From IMG/VR virus record IMGVR_UViG_3300045988_097468: a stretch of DNA of 35,924 bases, one strand, 5' to 3'. Both the position numbers and the translations under genes were made by a program. The notes beneath the pieces were generated by a model that saw only the letters and a program-made list of their open reading frames with translations, searched no databases and was not told the DNA's origin. Below, one piece after another: positions 6,774 to 15,364 of the stretch (the stretch's first letter is position 1; the number at the start of each line of letters is the position of its first letter). This stretch comes from a virus.

Positions 6774-6950
6774 CTACCTCCATATCATTAGCTGTCCGCA
6801 CCAATGGCAGTGCGTGTGATTGTAACCTGTTCGTTTCCCGCACCGAGGACAGGCGAAATAGTTCTCACCCATCTTTACAGGCTGCTTACCAGTCTCATAG
6901 TCTGCAGTAAGTCTTCCCGAGAGTGCCGCTGCTTTGTCGTAATCGCTCAC
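6774..6950 (-). CDS. Small zinc-ribbon protein (58 aa, below the track cutoff)
   Basis: GTG at 6950 opens …FACPRCGKRTGYNHTHCHWCGQLMIWR, ending in a stop. It fills a gap that has no other minus-strand ORF. Confidence 0.4.
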   Translation of the reverse strand: MSDYDKAAALSGRLTADYETGKQPVKMGENYFACPRCGKRTGYNHTHCHWCGQLMIWR

Positions 6951-7042
6951 GATATCTATTGCTCCGGTGACTGCTGCCTTCTCTCAGGTTGATAAGCATC
7001 CATCTTTTATGTTCATAAGGTGCTTTATGATGTCTTCATTCC

Positions 7043-7276
7043 TCACTTAATTTCCCCCTTTCTAATCATCTGTTCTATGTCAAAGTGGCTAAAGCATTCA
7101 CGATAACCTTTCTCGCTCCTCATTAACACATAGTCCCTGTATGACTTCACTACAGTCCACCGCACCCACTTTGTATATGGGACATTGTTCTCTTTGCCGC
7201 CATATGATAATATCTTCACCCGCCTGCCAGGCTGGCAGATGATATTGTGTTTTGCTGTGATCTCGAATGCTGTCAT
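7043..7276 (-). CDS. Hypothetical protein
   Basis: 77-aa ORF with an AAAGGAGAG RBS. Confidence 0.6.
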   Translation of the reverse strand: MTAFEITAKHNIICQPGRRVKILSYGGKENNVPYTKWVRWTVVKSYRDYVLMRSEKGYRECFSHFDIEQMIRKGEIK

Positions 7277-7288
7277 GTGCTCTCCTTT

Positions 7289-7864
7289 CTAACTCCAACC
7301 TTTTGTGGAATGTAATATGTCCTTAAGTTCTTTCAGCTTCTCCCGGATTCCAGCCATCATTCTGAGAGCATCGCTGTAATGGTCATTAGATATCTCACGC
7401 TCAAACTGTCTGACTACCTTCAACGCCTCTTTTTTTCTGCTTTCAAGGTCTGTAACCTCTAGGATTTCCTTGTGATTTTGCGCTGGCGCAATTACTTCTG
7501 TTCCTTCAACATCGCTTTCAGACGCTGTGCGTCCTTCTTCAGATCGTTCTTCGCCTTCAGAATCTGCTCGTTCAGGTTCTGAAGCTGGTTCTCCAGCTCT
7601 GTCGTATCCTGTCTCTGCTGTTTCATCCGCACTATCATTGCTTTTATGTCCTGCCTCTCCGCATACAGTATTTCCAGCTGTTTCACTATGTCCATCTACT
7701 GCCTCCTCTACATCGTGATGTATCTCTTCTTCCTGTGCCAGCGACATATCCTCTGTCTTCTTGCTCTCTTCTCTCTGATCTGCTGCCACATCTGCATTAT
7801 CTTGTTCACTCGCTTCCTCCTCTCCGAAGTGTGTGCCACTATCTACTTTTATCAAATCATTCAT
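7289..7864 (-). CDS. Highly acidic, low-complexity protein with a helical C-terminus
   Basis: 191 aa with a GGAGG RBS at 7-nt spacing. The central part is rich in Glu/Asp/Ser. It contains a nested alternative-frame ORF. Confidence 0.6.
   Translation of the reverse strand: MNDLIKVDSGTHFGEEEASEQDNADVAADQREESKKTEDMSLAQEEEIHHDVEEAVDGHSETAGNTVCGEAGHKSNDSADETAETGYDRAGEPASEPERADSEGEERSEEGRTASESDVEGTEVIAPAQNHKEILEVTDLESRKKEALKVVRQFEREISNDHYSDALRMMAGIREKLKELKDILHSTKGWS
7492..7695 (-). CDS. Nested 67-aa coiled-coil ORF in an alternative frame of 7289..7864
   Basis: ATG 7695 is preceded by GGAGG (7706..7702) with a 6-nt spacer. The product MDIVKQLEILYAERQDIKAMIVRMKQQ… has heptad-like amphipathic composition. 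Confidence 0.4.
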   Translation of the reverse strand: MDIVKQLEILYAERQDIKAMIVRMKQQRQDTTELENQLQNLNEQILKAKNDLKKDAQRLKAMLKEQK

Positions 7865-7880
7865 TAAAAACCTCCTCTAT

Positions 7881-9500
7881 CTATACAAAACACAACTGTC
7901 CGCTCTCTTCTTCGCCTATCCTCATGTTTGGCACCCTCTTCCTTACGCAAAGTTCAGGAAGATTCGCCCTTACCATCGCCGCCGGTATAGGTGGACAGAC
8001 TGCATTCCCACATCTCTTAACCTGTTCACTTCTTGAATATGTCTTACCTGTGTTGTCATGATCTATGATGTAATCATCCGGAAACCCTTGGCACCCATAT
8101 AACTCCTTTGGCTCAAGCATTCTGAGACCAATGCCCACTATCTGATACTCAACGCCTTGGATTGTTACAAGTCCGAACCGGTCTCTTGATGTCACTGTAT
8201 CAAGCGGCTGTTCTATGTCCTGCCCTGTACCCTCTCCGTAGTATTTAATCAAGAATGCTCTGACCTCTCCAAAATGTCCGGCTGATGTTGTAACTGTATG
8301 CAGCGGCTCTCTCTCATCCTGTCCTATTCCTGTTTTGTAGAACTTACTGAGGAACGAAGTCACAAGGCCATATCTGTTTGAACTGTCCACTGTCATGATC
8401 GGATTCTCTATGCCTTGACCTCGCACCTCGTCTGAATTTGTCTCCGAATGGTATTGGATAAGAGTCGCTGCAACCAACCGGTTATGATCCACTGTCGTTA
8501 TCGTATCAATTGGGTCTTCGGCTTTACTCCCACCACCTTGATAATTTCCACCATACGTTTTGTCTATAATAGGTGCAAGTCTCGGCTCGCATAAATAATG
8601 CTTTCCACTGCTTACTATAGTCGGCAACGGCTTCTTAATGTCGTGAACTCTCGGCGATTGTCCTTTTCGTTCTCCATATCCAATGGGTACAATGAACGGC
8701 TCTGGATTATCCAGAACGAACTTCTTCAGCCCTCTTGCAATCCTCTGCATAGTCTTTGGCGCAAGTGGCCTCACCGCCCGAATGCCGTACTTCTCCTTGA
8801 TCTCCTCTGATGTATCAAAGATACTCGGACAAGGTAAGCTGAAATCAAGCTGTGTATATGCTCCAACATAAGGCTTGAGCAGTCCCGCCTTGACCTCTTC
8901 ACTGTCTGCCGGTGCATGTGTGGGCTTTGGCCACATGATCGGTGCACCATCACACCTTGCGATCATAAAGAACCTTTTTCTTTTAGTCGGTGCTCCATAG
9001 TCTGCCGCCACAAGCTCTCTGAACTGTACCTCATACCCCAGCTCATTGAGCTGCTTTACAAACTTCCTGAAAGTATCTCCTTGCTTTGCCCTTATCGGAT
9101 GATGTCCTCTGTTGAGCGGTCCCCATGTCTTGAACTCTTCAACATTCTCAAGCATAATCACTCTCGGTCTCACAAGTGCCGCCCATCTGCATGCTACCCA
9201 TGCAAGGCCTCTGATGTTCTTATCCTTTGGTTTGCCACCCTTGGCCTTTGAAAAATGCTTGCAGTCTGGTGAGAACCAGGCAAGAGCTACCGGGTGTCCC
9301 TCACAGGCTTTCACAGGGTCAACCGCCCACACGTTCTCACAATAGTGCTTTGTGTTTGGATGGTTGACCTTATGCATCCTTATGGCTTCAGGGTCATGGT
9401 TGATAGCTATATCAACACTGTATCCTGTTGCCATCTCAATTCCTGTTGATGCTCCACCACCTCCGGCAAAGTTATCAACGATAAGCTCTCCGTTTATCAT
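7881..9500 (-). CDS. DNA (cytosine-5)-methyltransferase with an expanded, repeat-built target-recognition region
   Basis: Motif I DNFAGGGGAS, motif IV SPDCKHFS (Cys80), motif VI ENV, motif VIII QFRELVAADYGAPTKRKRFF, motif X GNAVCPP. Five P-[LI]-x-T-[IV] modules lie at residues 289-449. Confidence 0.9.
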   Translation of the reverse strand: MINGELIVDNFAGGGGASTGIEMATGYSVDIAINHDPEAIRMHKVNHPNTKHYCENVWAVDPVKACEGHPVALAWFSPDCKHFSKAKGGKPKDKNIRGLAWVACRWAALVRPRVIMLENVEEFKTWGPLNRGHHPIRAKQGDTFRKFVKQLNELGYEVQFRELVAADYGAPTKRKRFFMIARCDGAPIMWPKPTHAPADSEEVKAGLLKPYVGAYTQLDFSLPCPSIFDTSEEIKEKYGIRAVRPLAPKTMQRIARGLKKFVLDNPEPFIVPIGYGERKGQSPRVHDIKKPLPTIVSSGKHYLCEPRLAPIIDKTYGGNYQGGGSKAEDPIDTITTVDHNRLVAATLIQYHSETNSDEVRGQGIENPIMTVDSSNRYGLVTSFLSKFYKTGIGQDEREPLHTVTTSAGHFGEVRAFLIKYYGEGTGQDIEQPLDTVTSRDRFGLVTIQGVEYQIVGIGLRMLEPKELYGCQGFPDDYIIDHDNTGKTYSRSEQVKRCGNAVCPPIPAAMVRANLPELCVRKRVPNMRIGEEESGQLCFV

Positions 9501-10753
9501 GGCAGCACCTCCGGGTAATCATATATGCTCAGCTGTACCGCCGGTACATCTTCCCATGGCACTCCGATATAGTCTAGGACTCTTCCCCAGCCGAATTTCT
9601 CTCCAGTCTCTGGATCCGTGCAGCACCTGTACATGTAGAACTCCCATTCCTTTGGATTCCTCTCTCTGAGCCTATCAAACCTGTGTGGCCGTTCTTCCAT
9701 GTGGATTCCAAAGCCACACATGCTGCAGCCTGTCCGCTGTGCTCCTGTCGTTCTGAGATTGCCGTGTCCATCATCCTGTATTTGTCCATATATAGCCGGT
9801 ATGATCGTTTCAACCGGCTCGTAAGGTATTGTGTTGCCAGCCTTATCCTTGCTGTATGGCTGCTCATAATAAAGCTTTGCATACACATCTGTATGTGCGT
9901 GATACCAGGCATTCATCTCCTGAGCAAGTCTTAATATGTCATTTCTGAGGTATGGTGCAAATGGCGCTGATCTCATTACTGTCTTGCCATAGTAATTGCA
10001 TCCATGATCTGTGAGAGCTTCTTCTCTCTGACCACCTTCGGATGCCATCATGCCAAGGAACGGATAGCTTGAATGAGCCTTAGCCCAGTCATCGCATGGC
10101 TTCTCTTTCAGCCAATAGCAACAATCATTTGACACCTTGAAATTTGGCTTGTAATACATAACACCTTCATTCTCGTTCTCATATCCTCCGAACAGGTTAA
10201 GCCACTTCTGTGGCAACTTCATGCGGCTGTTCTTCTGGAAGTGTCCAAGCTTTCCACATTCGCCTGTGATTATTGCATGTCGAACTGTCTTATTGTTTTC
10301 AGTCGGATTCTGAAGCAGCGCTATCTTTCCCGCTATTCTCTTGCTGATAACCGGGAACCCAACTTCATTGAGTACCTCAACTTTTGTCTTGAGCGGGTTC
10401 AGGATTGTCACTCCAAGAGCTTTATGTACCCGCTGTATACTCTTATCTTCCAGAGATGAAACCGAGACCGCTGGAACATTGATCCCTATCGACTTCAGGA
10501 ATACGTGTAATGTAATACTGTCAAGACCGCCAACACTCACATGAGCCGTTTTGTCTCGTATCCGCATCTGCTCCATGAACTCTTCAGCTCTAAGTCTGGA
10601 TCGCCGCACCTTAACTTCATACGGCTGGCTCTGGAGCATTATCATCTTCTCCCTGGCTTCTTTCTTGCGCTTCTTGTATTCCTCTAAGCCCTCGTCCGGG
10701 CTGTCAAGTTCGCCATCCTCTCCAAAAATTCTCGTTATTAAGTCTTCGTTCAT
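9497..10753 (-). CDS. PAPS-reductase / PP-loop ATP-pyrophosphatase-like protein (DndC/BrxP-like fold)
   Basis: 418 aa. It has a PP-loop-like SVGGLDS (residues 73-79), NDCCYWLKEKP (CC at 211-212) and TGCSMCGFG (CxxC at 343-346). Its stop overlaps the MTase start (ATGA). Confidence 0.7.
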   Translation of the reverse strand: MNEDLITRIFGEDGELDSPDEGLEEYKKRKKEAREKMIMLQSQPYEVKVRRSRLRAEEFMEQMRIRDKTAHVSVGGLDSITLHVFLKSIGINVPAVSVSSLEDKSIQRVHKALGVTILNPLKTKVEVLNEVGFPVISKRIAGKIALLQNPTENNKTVRHAIITGECGKLGHFQKNSRMKLPQKWLNLFGGYENENEGVMYYKPNFKVSNDCCYWLKEKPCDDWAKAHSSYPFLGMMASEGGQREEALTDHGCNYYGKTVMRSAPFAPYLRNDILRLAQEMNAWYHAHTDVYAKLYYEQPYSKDKAGNTIPYEPVETIIPAIYGQIQDDGHGNLRTTGAQRTGCSMCGFGIHMEERPHRFDRLRERNPKEWEFYMYRCCTDPETGEKFGWGRVLDYIGVPWEDVPAVQLSIYDYPEVLP

Positions 10754-10843
10754 TCGCTTCTCAGGAACCCGCTATAGCATTACCCCGGCCGGAGGTTCGG
10801 CTCCTTTCGTGTGTTATTTGTTTAGATCATCGGCAAGAATCCT

Positions 10844-11212
10844 CTATTCCTTTCTTGTCGTTATTGTGTGTTTCATATACAGTGGCCAGAGCTGTTCCCA
10901 CAGCTCCTTGTTCGCCACATCCTTACCCTTTGTCGTTGTGTATCCATCCAGCGCCCAGCGTGCCAGGTTCTTTGTCATCATAGAGAGCACAAAATCATCT
11001 GCTGAGATGATCTCTATCTCACAAGGCCTTGTGAATCTGGATAATGCCACCGTGATGGCTGATATTGTAGCTGCGTGATATGTGCCGTATATCATTCCAG
11101 AGCCTTCCACTCTTGCGACTCTGCCACCCTGGGAGTGTTCTAGGATGTAACTGTATGTCTTGTGCGTCTCCTTGGTTGATGCGCTGTCCACGCTTACATA
11201 TATGCGCTCCAT
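10844..11212 (-). CDS. RNase HI-like protein, truncated and probably catalytically degenerate
   Basis: By eye it aligns with E. coli RNase HI: IYVSVDSA to IFTDGSC, AITVALSRFTRPCEIEIISADD to [20 protein letters not shown], and KDVANKELWEQLW to KPVKNVDLWQRLD. It ends before the H124/D134 region. Confidence 0.7.
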   Translation of the reverse strand: MERIYVSVDSASTKETHKTYSYILEHSQGGRVARVEGSGMIYGTYHAATISAITVALSRFTRPCEIEIISADDFVLSMMTKNLARWALDGYTTTKGKDVANKELWEQLWPLYMKHTITTRKE

Positions 11213-11986
11213 TTACTCCCTCCTTCTCATCGTGTATCTTCGGTATGAGTAACTTGTAACTGGGTTGATGCCCTCGTATATCCTGACTATCTCATACCCT
11301 TTCTTCGGCTTTGGTTCTCTCTTCCAGTGCAGGAGCTTGTCCACCTTCGGCTCTGGCAGTGGCATGTTCCGGGATGTGGAATATGAGGACTGTCTTATCC
11401 TCGGCTTTGACATGGTGCCATCTGCCTTATCCTCTGTGGTGTTCTCATCCTTGGTCATGTAAGCGGCCAGCTTTGAGAAATCGTCATCATATACCTTGTC
11501 AGATAGTCTGATCTGCTCGGCATATATACCGCCCTTATCCCACAGGCTCTTGATGATCGATGTCGTGTCTCCTATCTCGTTCACCACAAGGTGTGTGTGC
11601 CACGCTCCCTTGGTCCCTTGTTCGATGTTGCGGATCCAGCGGAGCTCATGCCCTCTCTTTCTGTATTCTGCTTTCACCTTCCGGATAAACTTCCCGAAGT
11701 GGGCTATCGCCTCCTTCATGGTGGGTGGTCTGTTCCTCTTCTCGTAGGTGAGGGTGATGAAGGTATCACCCGGACTGAAGTATTCAAGGAGCTTGTGCCT
11801 GCATCTCTTCACCTTGTTCTGATGGTTGATGATTGCCGCCTGCTCGGGTGTGGGCTTGCCTCTCGGCTTTCTCTTTCCTCCCGGGTGCCCATACCTGCCA
11901 TCGTGGAACTCCTCCACCTCTATGATCCGTCTCTTCCGGAAGGTGTAAGTCTTTCTCCTTACTATGTAATCACCCTCTTTTGTCAT
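11213..11986 (-). CDS. rep: HUH-superfamily rolling-circle replication initiator (Rep)
   Basis: Motif 1 FITLTY, motif 2 WHTHLVV (HUH) and motif 3 LAAYMTKDE (catalytic Tyr) occur in canonical order and spacing. A hairpin/AT-rich region lies upstream. Confidence 0.75.
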   Translation of the reverse strand: MTKEGDYIVRRKTYTFRKRRIIEVEEFHDGRYGHPGGKRKPRGKPTPEQAAIINHQNKVKRCRHKLLEYFSPGDTFITLTYEKRNRPPTMKEAIAHFGKFIRKVKAEYRKRGHELRWIRNIEQGTKGAWHTHLVVNEIGDTTSIIKSLWDKGGIYAEQIRLSDKVYDDDFSKLAAYMTKDENTTEDKADGTMSKPRIRQSSYSTSRNMPLPEPKVDKLLHWKREPKPKKGYEIVRIYEGINPVTSYSYRRYTMRRRE

Positions 11987-12000
11987 AAGATTAATAACTT

Positions 12001-12035
12001 AATCAAGTATCAAACAGGGCGCTCAAGTCCCTGTT
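12001..12035 (-). promoter_or_regulatory. Candidate double-strand origin / nick site for Rep
   Basis: The minus strand reads AACAGGG-ACTTGAGCG-CCCTGTT (7-bp stem, loop containing ACTTGA), followed by TGATACTTGATTAAGTTATTAATC. An AT-rich tract continues to 12128. Confidence 0.4.
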
Positions 12036-12128
12036 TTCCTTGCTTTTTTCTGCCTTGGGTGATAGAATAAATACAGGATATATTTTTCTTTTTTCACCCT
12101 AAAACTGGCGCTGTGAACGTCGGTTTTT

Positions 12129-12428
12129 TTATATCTGAATCTGGTACCACATGCATATCATGAGATCCTGGAATCTATACGGCATGTCTATGTCCGGTCT
12201 GATTGGTTTCATCAAGCCTCTGCTTTCCCAGTCCTTGTGTTTTATCTCGAGGTGGCAGTCGTATGCTTTCACTTCTTCCTCTCCCGATATGCCAAGTTCT
12301 GCAAGCCTTGCGCCGCCCCTGATGAATTCCAGGGACGCCTTAAAGCCTGTGAATACTGTCTTCCCATCTCTTATGATGATGAGATGGTCGGATCCTGCCC
12401 TGTAGGCTAACGCTTCACTCATCTTCAT
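12129..12428 (-). CDS. Hypothetical protein (start refined to MKMSEALAY…)
   Basis: GAGGAG lies 7 nt upstream of ATG 12428. The longer track ORF begins at a TTG inside the preceding gene. Confidence 0.55.
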   Translation of the reverse strand: MKMSEALAYRAGSDHLIIIRDGKTVFTGFKASLEFIRGGARLAELGISGEEEVKAYDCHLEIKHKDWESRGLMKPIRPDIDMPYRFQDLMICMWYQIQI

Positions 12429-12681
12429 CTTCCAGCTCCTCCACTTCGTCCTCGCACTTCCACAGCTCGTAGTCGTCCACGAACCCGTCATTGGCGTAAT
12501 AAAACAGTACAAGCACTGTCACGCTGATCAGGAACGCCGGCATAAGCACGGCGAACTCCTTCCAGGTCCACATCATGCGGAGCAGATAATACAGTGATGT
12601 GATCGCCGTTATCATCGATACTCCGACTATGATGTAGAGTGTTGTATTCTTGATTACTCTCTTTAGTTTCCTTTTGTTCAT
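12415..12681 (-). CDS. Small membrane protein (2 TM) with an acidic C-terminal tail
   Basis: Start MNKRKLKRV… (ATG 12681) has AAGGAG 5 nt upstream. It has two hydrophobic helices and a C-terminal EDEVEELEDEDE. Confidence 0.6.
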   Translation of the reverse strand: MNKRKLKRVIKNTTLYIIVGVSMITAITSLYYLLRMMWTWKEFAVLMPAFLISVTVLVLFYYANDGFVDDYELWKCEDEVEELEDEDE

Positions 12682-12813
12682 GTTTCTCCTTCTGGTGGCG
12701 CTCTTTGTAATGCCGTCACCTCCTTGTATTTTTGTCTGCGCTGACAATAGAGAACCTTTGCGGAGTCGAACCGCCTACAGCAACTGCTGCCTCCCGGATG
12801 AAAGGGTCCTGAA

Positions 12814-13008
12814 CTACACTCTCAAGCCAATAGCCTCCTCAAGCTTTGCTTTCGAGATGTAGTACCACCATTTACTCTTGTTCTTAACTGCATATCCAAT
12901 TGGGAGCTGTCCTCGCTGGAGTCCAGTTCTGATGAACTGCGGGGACACCTGCATCAATCTGGCTGCTTCATTGACTGTGATTCGGTTTCCGTCTGTTCTT
13001 TCTTCCAT
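12814..13008 (-). CDS. Small helix-turn-helix DNA-binding protein (excisionase/MerR-type HTH)
   Basis: 64 aa. ITVNEAARLMQVSPQFIRTGLQRGQLP matches the HTH_17/excisionase pattern. AAGGAG RBS. Confidence 0.65.
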   Translation of the reverse strand: MEERTDGNRITVNEAARLMQVSPQFIRTGLQRGQLPIGYAVKNKSKWWYYISKAKLEEAIGLRV

Positions 13009-13010
13009 GG

Positions 13011-13598
13011 TTATTCTCCTTCCTGTTGCATGTCGTATTCCGCTACGATCTTTTTGATATCGTCGATAAATGGCTGTATACTTCCTCCGTCAAGACTGCT
13101 AACAAGCACCTCGACATCCAACGTCGTCCGTAGATTCTCAAGAAAGCCTTTTCGAGCATCCGACTTTACTTGATCAGGATCTATGCTTACGCTTTCAGGC
13201 TCTTGTGACACGTACGTGCTTGGCGATAAGACATATGAGTTCTGCGCTATCTCTTCTAGGGGAACAGGGCGGCTCATTCCATCGTTCTCTATCACTATGT
13301 CTGTAGTCGTGCGGTTCTTTCTCAGCACTATCAGACATGTGGCTATTGCTGTGTCCTCAAATGTATTTCCGGGGACATTGACAACTCTATCTATGTAGTT
13401 GTTCTCTATGAACCACTGCCGGATCTTGCCTTCTCTCTGCCCTCTGTACAGTATTCCAGCGCCACAGGTTGGGTCGTATACAGTTTTTACGCTTATGTCA
13501 ACATACTCCTTAAGCTTTTCGGCGAGCTCTGGGGGCGTGTAGAATACGCCGCCCTTACGGAATTCCTGTCTTATGCTTTTGATACTCTTCTGTTTCAT
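13011..13598 (-). CDS. N6-adenine methyltransferase derivative with an in-frame internal deletion of the catalytic core
   Basis: It has GVFYTPPELA (motif X) and VYDPTCGAGIL (motif I). These run directly into …IRQWFIENNYIDRVVNVPGNTFEDTAIATCLIVLRKN (end of the MTase domain). No NPPY/F motif is present. Confidence 0.65.
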   Translation of the reverse strand: MKQKSIKSIRQEFRKGGVFYTPPELAEKLKEYVDISVKTVYDPTCGAGILYRGQREGKIRQWFIENNYIDRVVNVPGNTFEDTAIATCLIVLRKNRTTTDIVIENDGMSRPVPLEEIAQNSYVLSPSTYVSQEPESVSIDPDQVKSDARKGFLENLRTTLDVEVLVSSLDGGSIQPFIDDIKKIVAEYDMQQEGE

Positions 13599-14089: not shown

Positions 14090-14806
14090 TTACTCAAGCC
14101 AGCCATTTCCCAAATAGTAGAATCCGTACACCAGGGCGATTGTCGCTATAATCCAAATGATCCAAAATATCACAGTTCCAACACCTGACTCCAGATAGTC
14201 GATTGTCTCTTCTATGTTTGAGCCATTGAAGAATCTGCTGTTATCTGAAATTGTGCCGTTCATAAGCTTTGTATAAATCGTTCCTGTATAGCTCGTACCT
14301 ATACCGTAGTAGTTGTATCTCACGTAATATGATTCATTTACCGTGTTGATGTATTTCTTTGAGGGGAGCGCAACCTTATTTGAGGGGAATTTCACTCCAC
14401 AAAAGGTTATTTCTTTACACTTGATATCCTCACTGCTCACGGCATCCCACGACCAGTATGTTTGTGTTGTGGTATGTGTTCGCCCATTGCCGTCAACGGT
14501 CGTTACTGTCCGTGTATGCTGTGTGTAAATTTCCTTGACCTTTTTCACATACATATATTCCCCGCCAAGCTCCGGGTATGTAACTGTATCAACTGCTTTA
14601 AGCTCTCCATATACAAATGCATTACCAACGTTGGTGTCCATGCCGTATTGAAGCAGCTCCTGGCTATTTATTTTGACCGCTTTGTTGTACTTCTCATTCT
14701 TGTCCATCTCATGCTCCGATATCTTGCCAGAGATCAGAAATCCTACTGCGATCATCACGGCAACTATAGATATGCTGACCAGTATTTCTCTTTTTGTTAT
14801 TTCCAT
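14090..14806 (-). CDS. Two-pass membrane protein with a beta-rich central domain of about 190 aa, partner of LemA
   Basis: 238 aa with an N-terminal TM (ILVSISIVAVMIAVGFLISG) and a C-terminal TM (VGTVIFWIIWIIATIALVYGFYYLG). It starts 3 nt after the LemA stop. Confidence 0.65.
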   Translation of the reverse strand: MEITKREILVSISIVAVMIAVGFLISGKISEHEMDKNEKYNKAVKINSQELLQYGMDTNVGNAFVYGELKAVDTVTYPELGGEYMYVKKVKEIYTQHTRTVTTVDGNGRTHTTTQTYWSWDAVSSEDIKCKEITFCGVKFPSNKVALPSKKYINTVNESYYVRYNYYGIGTSYTGTIYTKLMNGTISDNSRFFNGSNIEETIDYLESGVGTVIFWIIWIIATIALVYGFYYLGNGWLE

Positions 14807-14809
14807 GCG

Positions 14810-15364
14810 TTACCTCTCTTTAAACAGATCCTGCGGAGCATCCACAGGTGCGCTGTAGTTGAGGTATTCATATTCCTGTGATTTATAGCCCAGCATTCCA
14901 AGGAATACCCGGGTCGGGAACTTTCTCACATATCTTTTGTATTCTTTTACCTGTTTGTTATAGTTGCTTCGGTATTCAGCTATCAGATTCTCAGTCATTG
15001 ACAGTTCGTTCATCAATGTCTTGTAGTTCTCATTTGACTTCAACTCCGGATACGCCTCGGCTACCGCCGTGATGGCTGTAGTAACATTTTCAATGTCTCC
15101 TGCGGAATTTTCCCGCCCATCCACTATAGCTTTGAGCGTCTCTGATTCATGCGTGTCGTACTGTTTCACGCAGTCTGCAAGATTGTATACAAGGTCAACC
15201 CTTCGCTTTTCCTGGACTTTTATATCTGATGATGCCGTATTCACCTGCTCCTCCAAGGCTATCGCCCTGTTCTGTGAGCTCTGAATACCAAGCACTACCA
15301 TGACCACTACTGCTATCACTCCGGTGCCGATTATTATCGGTAATTTCCATTTTGTGTTTTCCAT
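14810..15364 (-). CDS. lemA: LemA family protein
   Basis: 184 aa with an N-terminal TM. Helical body motifs are QVNTASSDIKVQEKRRVDLVYNL…, …AYPELKSNENY… and …YNKQVKEYKRYVRKFPTRVF…, typical of LemA. Confidence 0.8.
   Translation of the reverse strand: MENTKWKLPIIIGTGVIAVVVMVVLGIQSSQNRAIALEEQVNTASSDIKVQEKRRVDLVYNLADCVKQYDTHESETLKAIVDGRENSAGDIENVTTAITAVAEAYPELKSNENYKTLMNELSMTENLIAEYRSNYNKQVKEYKRYVRKFPTRVFLGMLGYKSQEYEYLNYSAPVDAPQDLFKER

Follow-up and report, generated by a model that had tools for sequence, protein, structure and literature searches.

The viral sequence IMGVR_UViG_3300045988_097468 from IMG/VR, referred to here in its full length of 35,924 nucleotides (~36 kb) as the window, carries on its minus strand two overlapping genes, of which the first encodes a 418-amino-acid protein resembling phosphoadenosine phosphosulfate (PAPS) reductases (gene 1) and the second a complete cytosine-5 methyltransferase (C5-MTase) of 539 amino acids (gene 2). 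Our analysis of the pair and its relatives indicates a real, co-expressed module of the anti-restriction type, with gene 1 being a divergent member of a widespread phage family and not a new kind of system. The window also codes for a terminase, portal, major head protein, tape measure, endolysin, integrase and CI/LexA-like repressor, and represents a temperate siphovirus of gut Lachnospiraceae (Clostridia). The pair is directly preceded on that strand by genes for a replication initiator (Rep) and RNase H, giving the following layout:

9497..10753, minus strand: gene 1, a divergent phage PAPS-reductase-like PP-loop and putative Fe-S protein of PHROG 424, taken from the open reading frame (ORF) list (match to phrog_424, PF01507 in relatives, AlphaFold2 fold)
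7881..9500, minus strand: gene 2, a cytosine-5 DNA methyltransferase of 539 amino acids (PF00145, E = 1.5e-26; phrog_116, E = 4.6e-100)
9497..9512, minus strand: the gene junction, with GGAGG, a 7-nt spacer and an ATGA stop/start overlap (read from the sequence; overlap conserved in 24 contigs)
10844..11212, minus strand: RNase H, upstream in the same leftward block (PF00075, E = 1.3e-7; phrog_531)
11213..11986, minus strand: replication initiator of the Rep ORF2/G2P type (PF23343, E = 2.3e-14; phrog_3584, E = 6.9e-49)

At the junction, the plus-strand TCAT at 9497-9500 corresponds to ATGA on the coding strand, the ATG of gene 2 (9500..9498) overlapping the TGA stop of gene 1 (9499..9497), and a GGAGG Shine-Dalgarno sequence (9512..9508) is located 7 nt ahead of the gene 2 start. 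This 4-nt overlap is kept in all 24 related viral contigs with the MTase downstream. The initial annotation, made from the letters alone, had reported both ORFs, the ATGA overlap, an SVGGLDS loop and cysteines at 211-212 and 343-346, all of which are present at these positions; its further claim of a complete, co-expressed C5-MTase directly after the replication genes agrees with a PF00145 match of 94 bits (cut-off 22) and with Rep and RNase H upstream. We are highly confident in the identity of both genes and in their co-expression. A promoter and terminator scan of 6800..13200 returned counts within shuffle expectation and was uninformative on operon boundaries. GC content is even across the window and thus gives no sign of a recently acquired cassette, and a megablast of the gene pair against GenBank phages found no match.

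No model in Pfam (E ≤ 0.1), NCBIfam or PADLOC matched the gene 1 protein directly, and searches of PDB sequences with phmmer and a close-family profile returned noise only; the protein has no close relative of solved structure. Its assignment as PAPS-reductase-like draws on PHROG 424, transitive homology and the predicted fold. The match to phrog_424 ("phosphoadenosine phosphosulfate reductase") is strong (E = 1.8e-32), with residues 1-405 aligning to profile positions 86-392 of 460. A cluster search yielded more than 5,371 significant 90%-identity clusters, the best 120 being 72-98% identical to gene 1 and carrying no precomputed Pfam domain, and a profile search over 1.84 billion representatives returned 1,530 clusters. 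PF01507 was detected in 25 of 33 full-length relatives (29-59% identity; best E = 6.5e-28). As gene 1 itself stays below the threshold that these 25 relatives exceed, its membership in the PF01507 superfamily is transitive only; judged by sequence homology, its place among the PAPS-reductase/PP-loop proteins is nevertheless solid.

Structure prediction led to the same superfamily. The AlphaFold2 model, computed from a 138-sequence alignment, reached a mean predicted local distance difference test score (pLDDT) of 89 and a predicted template modelling score (pTM) of 0.87, and its predicted Rossmann-like α/β/α fold superposes on CysH and N-type ATP pyrophosphatases (ATP-PPases). The best Foldseek matches in the PDB were CysH (6vpu) and the adenosine phosphosulfate (APS) reductases 2goy and 7lhs (probability 0.93-1.0, target template modelling (TM) score 0.47-0.52); next in rank came GMP and NAD synthetases, TtuA, whose structure holds a [4Fe-4S] cluster, and LarE. 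No solved structure of DndC, SspD or BrxP was among the top 50 listed of the 704 PDB matches, and a fold search of BFVD added only viral proteins that are unannotated or named "PAPS reductase". Three long, domain-bearing database proteins (P0152, P0159 and P0172) were considered as natural fusions and set aside, as they look like assembly or gene-call chimeras, with a tape-measure tail, a nitrogenase-like N-terminus and a DndC-like second half among the signs.

We then located residues conserved across the 138 sequences, most of which are only 30-38% identical to gene 1. Invariant were G76, D78, S79, L82, E102, G132, P134, K138, C211, C212, P219, R243, C252, P264, Y322, T341, G342, C343, C346 and G349, and gene 1 has further cysteines at 166, 220, 377 and 378. 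Given the low overall identity, the conservation of the PP-loop and cysteine features is not due to chance. Four features stand out:

10517..10537, minus strand: PP-loop variant SVGGLDS, residues 73-79 (G76, D78 and S79 invariant in 138)
10118..10123, minus strand: invariant Cys211-Cys212 pair (alignment; matches the CC of Mycobacterium tuberculosis APS reductase, 7lhr)
9998..10000, minus strand: invariant Cys252 in a GCN motif, the fifth conserved cysteine (alignment)
9716..9727, minus strand: invariant C343-x-x-C346 in an RTGCxxCxFG motif (alignment)

The cysteine pair, part of a CCxxMKxxP motif, aligns with the CC of HECCRLRKVVPL in 7lhr; the match is weak (E = 0.03-0.05), with CCxx(K/R)Kxx-P-L as the motif common to both proteins, and the CC pair of 7lhr is one we take to be an Fe-S ligand. 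In APS reductases, a CC pair and a downstream CxxC together ligate a [4Fe-4S] cluster. The distance between the two motifs is ~95 residues in typical family members and 131 in gene 1, the longer spacing resulting from an insertion, and it fits the APS-reductase pattern. From these motifs, a [4Fe-4S] cluster is expected at the CC...C...CxxC set of gene 1. Cys252 might carry a persulfide or take part in catalysis, though this is a guess. The catalytic-cysteine motif of sulfonucleotide reductases (ECG[LIV]H or CG[LIV]H) was found in none of the 138 sequences. Taken together, PHROG 424, the transitive PF01507 link and the AlphaFold2 fold uphold the earlier description of gene 1 as a PAPS-reductase-fold PP-loop protein with conserved cysteines of the Fe-S type.

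Typical members of the family have a canonical ATP-pyrophosphatase loop, SFSGG(K/L)DS, and a DTGLEYPE motif. In the clade of gene 1, hereafter the window clade, VGGLDS takes the place of SGGKDS, with valine for the first serine of SGG, and S(S/G/A)LEDKS, for instance SSLEDKS, that of DTGLEYPE. Its proteins are ~80-100 amino acids longer than typical members owing to an N-terminal helix and three insertions, and are encoded by prophages from no fewer than 148 species of Clostridia. The altered loop and DTG motifs together with the three insertions account for the missing Pfam match of gene 1. A family-specific helical insert at residues ~124-190 contains GFPVISK and LQNPT..N.

Which branch of the superfamily gene 1 belongs to was addressed through its relatives. 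Among the 33 relatives, PADLOC models for BrxP matched 18 (best 5.3e-19), SspD 15 (best 1e-11), QueC 9 (best 4e-8) and DndC 4 (best 9e-5). The NCBIfam models PRK08557, PRK13795, PRK02090, cysH and APS reductase matched typical relatives at 1e-16 to 1e-24; specifically, TIGR00434 (cysH) matched 120 of 120 (best 9.6e-19) and TIGR02055 (APS_reductase) 119 of 120 (best 4.7e-16), the curated cut-offs of these two models not being displayed. The DndC model TIGR03183 recognized 16 of 138 relatives (best 5e-5) and missed gene 1. A search with PF01507, DndC and BrxP models, as the initial annotation had proposed, was thus informative for the relatives (PF01507 in 25 of 33, BrxP in 18, DndC in 4) but not for gene 1 itself. 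The proposed grouping with either CysH or DNA-associated clades gave a similarly divided outcome: relatives score about equally on cysH-type and BrxP models and much worse on DndC, the gene 1 clade scores on none, and the grouping is not decisive since the family is about equally far from both sides. By these sequence scores, the family is a phage clade of its own, about as distant from CysH-type domains as from those of the BrxP/SspD type, and well removed from DndC.

Gene 2 contains motifs I (F11AGGGG), IV (S77-P-D-C80), VI (ENV118), VIII (TKRKR172) and IX/X (QGFPD and GNAV498), motif IV reading S-P-D-C rather than P-C, with an extra Asp. Between motifs VIII and IX, its variable region forms a repeat array:

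8115..8648, minus strand: five tandem ~35-amino-acid modules resembling target-recognition domains, residues 285-462, each opening with P-x-x-T-[IV] (gene 2 sequence)

Among relatives of gene 2, module number follows protein length, with three modules at 475 amino acids, five at 527-539 and seven at 607, as if a multispecific phage C5-MTase had acquired and shed target-recognition domains. In Bacillus phages, multispecific C5-MTases (SPR, phi3T, rho11s type) have one core with tandem target modules of ~35-40 amino acids between motifs VIII and IX. Based on this shared architecture, gene 2 is predicted to produce 5-methylcytosine (5mC) at several targets; the enzyme looks active, and its most likely product is plain 5mC in a number of different sequences, which would blunt host type II restriction.

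Next, we asked how firmly gene 1 is tied to a methylase, counting immediate neighbours at the loci of its 80 closest IMG/VR relatives. A C5-MTase adjoins the gene 1 homologue in 50 of these loci; in 24 it lies downstream, each time with the 4-nt overlap, and in 26 it lies upstream, 31 nt away. In a separate homology-based count, a ~840-amino-acid fusion of SNF2 helicase and N6_N4 methylase adjoins it in 14 of 80 loci, and altogether 64 of the 80 have a methylase of the C5 or SNF2-fused type next to the gene. A second set comprised 80 prophage loci from Lachnospiraceae, Oscillospiraceae and other Clostridia (one genome per species, 51-94% identity). Here, a C5 or SNF2-fused methylase was adjacent in 27 and within 6 kb in 35, and no adjacent homologue of either type was found in 53 of the 80 loci. 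Other neighbours in this set were ParB_N (four loci) and a radical-SAM-like protein (at least three loci). Of 80 diverse viral loci of the typical family, 22 have a motif-defined methylase no more than 4 kb away, and DNA methylases are the commonest Pfam annotation among 135 immediate neighbours (N6_N4_Mtase 5, C5 4, Dam 1), followed by S-adenosylmethionine (SAM) synthetase (3), ParB_N (3) and Lar (2).

Individual phages illustrate the same variability. The closest homologue in a cultured phage belongs to Villandry, a complete, inducible Mu-like prophage of Enterocloster clostridioformis, where the gene lies between transposition and late genes and no methylase is annotated anywhere in the genome. 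In phage Saumur, the homologue is 56% identical and a C5-MTase is 4 kb away, and Enterobacter phage Tyrion has it behind the replication genes, with no methylase. The gene-neighbourhood statistics suggested in the initial annotation therefore confirm a methylase link, which is real and enriched, but reveal it to be facultative (64 of 80 viral and 27 of 80 prophage loci), with gene order and methylase type both varying. Because the order flips, the type changes and the methylase is often absent, the PP-loop protein does not depend on the C5-MTase.

Several neighbours deserve mention in their own right. In 3 of the 80 prophage loci, all from Oscillospiraceae, an SMC/RecF-like ATPase of ~430 amino acids (AAA_23, SMC_N) directly follows the gene (L223:7161-8450, L229:7043-8320, L238:7099-8397). 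It could be a partner in that sub-clade, DndD being an SMC-like ABC ATPase as well, or equally a plain recombination gene. In one further prophage locus (L239:7169-8521), a second, different PAPS_reduct gene directly follows the window-type gene; the chimeric database protein P0152 shows a DndC-like half (SGGKDS, FRWCTDRLK, GCWCC) behind a window-type fragment. The two PAPS_reduct paralogues may work in tandem. In the typical family, 3 of 68 viral loci have a SAM synthetase directly beside the gene, and Lar, ParB_N, dCMP deaminase and radical-SAM genes recur. Neighbours of this kind fit a DNA-modification or anti-restriction neighbourhood. Sulfate-assimilation genes were not among the neighbours of gene 1 or of its relatives.

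Other phage-encoded PAPS-reductase genes have been discussed in two ways. A 2026 paper in Nucleic Acids Research lists them as putative anti-defence genes, and other papers and GenBank call them sulfur-related auxiliary metabolic genes (AMGs), the authors noting that the downstream pathway is absent. The initial annotation had held the chemistry of the phage versions not to be established, and papers up to 2026, which offer only the AMG label or a putative DndC/SspD homology, leave that statement intact; the theme of such a gene next to a methylase has already been published. The only functional evidence found for a phage PAPS gene of this type comes from the vibriophage PAPS-Dam fusion p0018, which, when introduced with its neighbouring gene, led to escape from host Dnd, a purely genetic result (Piel et al., preprint 10.1101/2021.05.05.442762). 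BrxP and BrxC make phosphorothioate (PMC12914056), and, according to the passage in which that paper cites it, the tdp system requires tdpC alone for phosphorothioate formation, via an adenylated intermediate.

Overall, we favour a reading of the pair as two independent DNA-protection genes co-expressed in an early leftward operon, in which gene 1 acts as a sulfur-transfer writer or in counter-defence, and assign it a probability of about 40%. Genes 1 and 2 would lie side by side as parts of one exchangeable anti-restriction region. The gene 1 protein would bind ATP at its PP-loop and, in the manner of DndC, SspD, BrxP and TdpC, adenylate an oxygen of a nucleic acid, most plausibly of the DNA backbone phosphate. 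Sulfur supplied by a host cysteine desulfurase would then pass through the Fe-S/Cys site and replace the adenylate, and the phage DNA would end up marked or a host phosphorothioate-based defence countered. Speaking for this reading are the enzyme-like conservation of gene 1, the matches of its relatives to BrxP, SspD and DndC, the frequency of DNA methylases around the gene, the anti-Dnd effect of p0018, and phosphorothioate synthesis by BrxP with BrxC and by TdpC. The components of this proposal differ in strength. That gene 1 acts on DNA or in defence irrespective of the methylase is reasonably probable, and insertion of sulfur into DNA specifically is a tentative suggestion. We are more doubtful that gene 1 is a self-sufficient, TdpC-like single-protein writer of a sulfur-containing or adenylation-dependent DNA mark that dispenses with a DndD, SspC or BrxC partner.

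A number of observations weigh against the favoured reading. Gene 1 itself matched none of the PADLOC models for DndC, SspD and BrxP, and typical relatives score at least as high on cysH/APS-reductase models as on BrxP, and far higher than on DndC. With two motifs of the nucleotide pocket altered in the window clade, ATP use is not assured. Dnd, Ssp and type 4 BREX all need a nucleoside triphosphatase (NTPase) partner (PMC12914056), and neither DndD/E-, SspB/C- or BrxC-like genes nor a cysteine desulfurase were identified among the ~30 window ORFs and the neighbours scanned; no constant partner of gene 1 was seen across related loci. As p0018 was not among the tblastn matches of the gene 1 protein, it serves as an analogy rather than as an orthologue. 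Finally, the methylase could share the location merely because the region downstream of the replication genes is a permissive accessory region, as the position of the Tyrion homologue illustrates.

Alternatively, gene 1 may perform another PP-loop reaction, such as [4Fe-4S]-dependent base thiolation (as TtuA, TtcA and ThiI) or amidation or nitrile chemistry (as QueC and TilS), on phage DNA, tRNA or a nucleotide precursor. The family profile also reaches TtuA, GMP synthetase and TilS among PDB and NCBIfam entries, the QueC model is found in 9 of 33 relatives, Foldseek returned TtuA with a [4Fe-4S] cluster, the invariant cysteines number five, not four, and the predicted helical insert at residues ~124-190 could bind nucleic acid. 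These matches, however, span mainly the generic PP-loop region, the CC...CxxC and CCxxKKxP signatures are of the PAPS/APS-reductase type, and queuosine-pathway or tRNA genes were not seen nearby in the window and neighbour scans, leaving this alternative unlikely.

In another scenario, gene 1 is an antagonist that diverts host desulfurase persulfide, DndD/E, SspB/C, BrxC or a sulfonucleotide while the phage DNA stays unmodified. The invariance of D78, S79, K138, R243 and all five cysteines down to 30% identity is what would be expected of an enzyme, and occurrence in at least 148 Clostridia species is broader than expected for a counter to one defence. Even though the one genetic experiment on a phage PAPS domain revealed a loss of Dnd restriction and no chemistry, the nucleotide-pocket motifs are altered in the window clade and the scans revealed no partner NTPase, we consider a pure antagonist quite improbable.

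Taken at face value, the annotation in GenBank and several papers would make gene 1 an AMG that, like CysH or APS reductase, reduces (P)APS to sulfite for the host. CysH and APS reductases are indeed the best fold matches, relatives match the PRK02090, cysH and APS_reductase models, and the CC/CxxC pattern is that of Fe-S APS reductases. Still, we regard this role as very improbable: the catalytic ECGLH cysteine occurs in 0 of 138 sequences, the typical family has the ATP-pyrophosphatase SGGKDS loop, the DTG nucleotide motif is gone from the window clade, the genes nearby encode DNA methylases, ParB_N and Lar and are not cys genes, and the AMG authors themselves concede that the pathway is absent.

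The last alternative, proposed in the initial annotation, treats the pair as one chemical unit reaching beyond 5mC, with the PP-loop enzyme acting on or with the C5-MTase product to give a further-processed cytosine or hypermodified base; despite the shared operon, the 4-nt overlap kept in 24 contigs and the methylase adjoining on either side in relatives, this idea is close to negligible, as the partner varies in position, type (C5, SNF2-N6/N4 or Dam-type) and presence, down to Villandry with no annotated methylase, and as PP-loop enzymes adenylate oxygens and the 5-methyl group, to our knowledge, offers no handle for such adenylation.

Few accessory genes are as common in gut and environmental phages as those for "PAPS reductase", which are routinely called sulfur AMGs. 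If the gene 1 family modifies DNA or defeats phosphorothioate immunity, many of these assignments would be mistaken, a DNA mark would be escaping methylome and virome studies based on sequencing, and an anti-defence part would be gained for phage engineering in gut Firmicutes. Were gene 1 a single-protein writer, it would be the first phage-encoded writer of phosphorothioate or a thio-base, and a large share of human-gut phage DNA would carry an unrecognized modification. To the published theme, the present analysis adds the facultative nature of the methylase link, the absence of the CysH catalytic cysteine in all sequences examined and the invariance of the APS-reductase-type Fe-S cysteines. 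It also points to possible test systems, as the inducible prophages Villandry and Saumur of the culturable Enterocloster clostridioformis carry close homologues, Villandry being a natural case of gene 1 only.

Three further loci of the window complete the picture. A 191-amino-acid protein (7289..7864, minus strand) begins 17 nt past the MTase stop and is very acidic (isoelectric point 4.46, 52 Asp and Glu residues); it has no family match, and only one of the 80 closest viral loci (L012) contains it. Judged by location and charge, it is a candidate anti-restriction protein of the DNA-mimic type. Farther upstream, 13011..13598 (minus strand) encodes a 195-amino-acid partial N6-adenine methylase (PF02384) that keeps FYTPP and DPTCGAG and is without the NPPY-type catalytic motif, probably an internally deleted, inactive remnant. 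A LemA-family protein (PF04011) and a phrog_3886 membrane protein at 14090..15364 (minus strand) adjoin the repressor/integrase block and may be a moron expressed in the lysogen, for example for superinfection exclusion.

Comparison with known systems places gene 1 between several better-studied enzymes. CysH and APS reductases are the closest solved folds and share CCxx(R/K)Kxx-P-L, a CxxC at comparable spacing and, with the typical phage family, the DTG motif. In contrast to them, the family lacks the C-terminal ECGLH catalytic cysteine and has a canonical SGGxDS loop, and gene 1 is found amid phage early genes (Rep, RNase H, C5-MTase) rather than cys genes. The P-loop of CysH is degenerate. 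DndC resembles gene 1 in being an ATP-pyrophosphatase-type PP-loop protein with an Fe-S cluster, as described in the literature, and a proposed role in sulfur transfer. The sequence kinship is marginal, however, dndD and dndE were not found among the ~30 window ORFs scanned, and, by our own reading, the DndC-like half of the chimeric protein has FRWCTDRLK where the gene 1 family has CCxxMK. BrxP of type 4 BREX and SspD likewise combine a PP-loop PAPS-reductase domain with an association to DNA modification or defence; they differ from gene 1, which has no DUF4007 fusion, is encoded by a phage instead of a host island, and has no BrxC/SspC NTPase or SspB partner identified near it.

The vibriophage protein p0018 is similar in linking a phage PAPS-reductase domain to a DNA methylase within an exchangeable anti-defence region, but differs in its fusion to Dam (N6A), its shorter PAPS domain (residues 4-175) and its Gram-negative host. 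Gene 1 is closest to the typical members of PHROG 424, proteins of ~310-340 amino acids that bear PF01507, as in the Clostridium phages phiCP34O and phiCP13O and Enterobacter phage Tyrion; its closest cultured member is that of Clostridium phage Villandry (ON453902), at 74% identity. Unlike the typical members, the gene 1 clade falls below every Pfam and NCBIfam threshold. Both have in common the PP-loop, CC, GCN, RTGCxxCxFG and the GYPVISK...NPT..N insert, and like them gene 1 is a stand-alone gene in the early/accessory region of a temperate phage. Gene 2, in turn, departs from the multispecific C5-MTases of Bacillus phages in its S-P-D-C motif IV and in a module number of 3, 5 or 7 among close relatives, and shares with them a single catalytic core, tandem modules, a phage-borne location and a predicted self-protective role.

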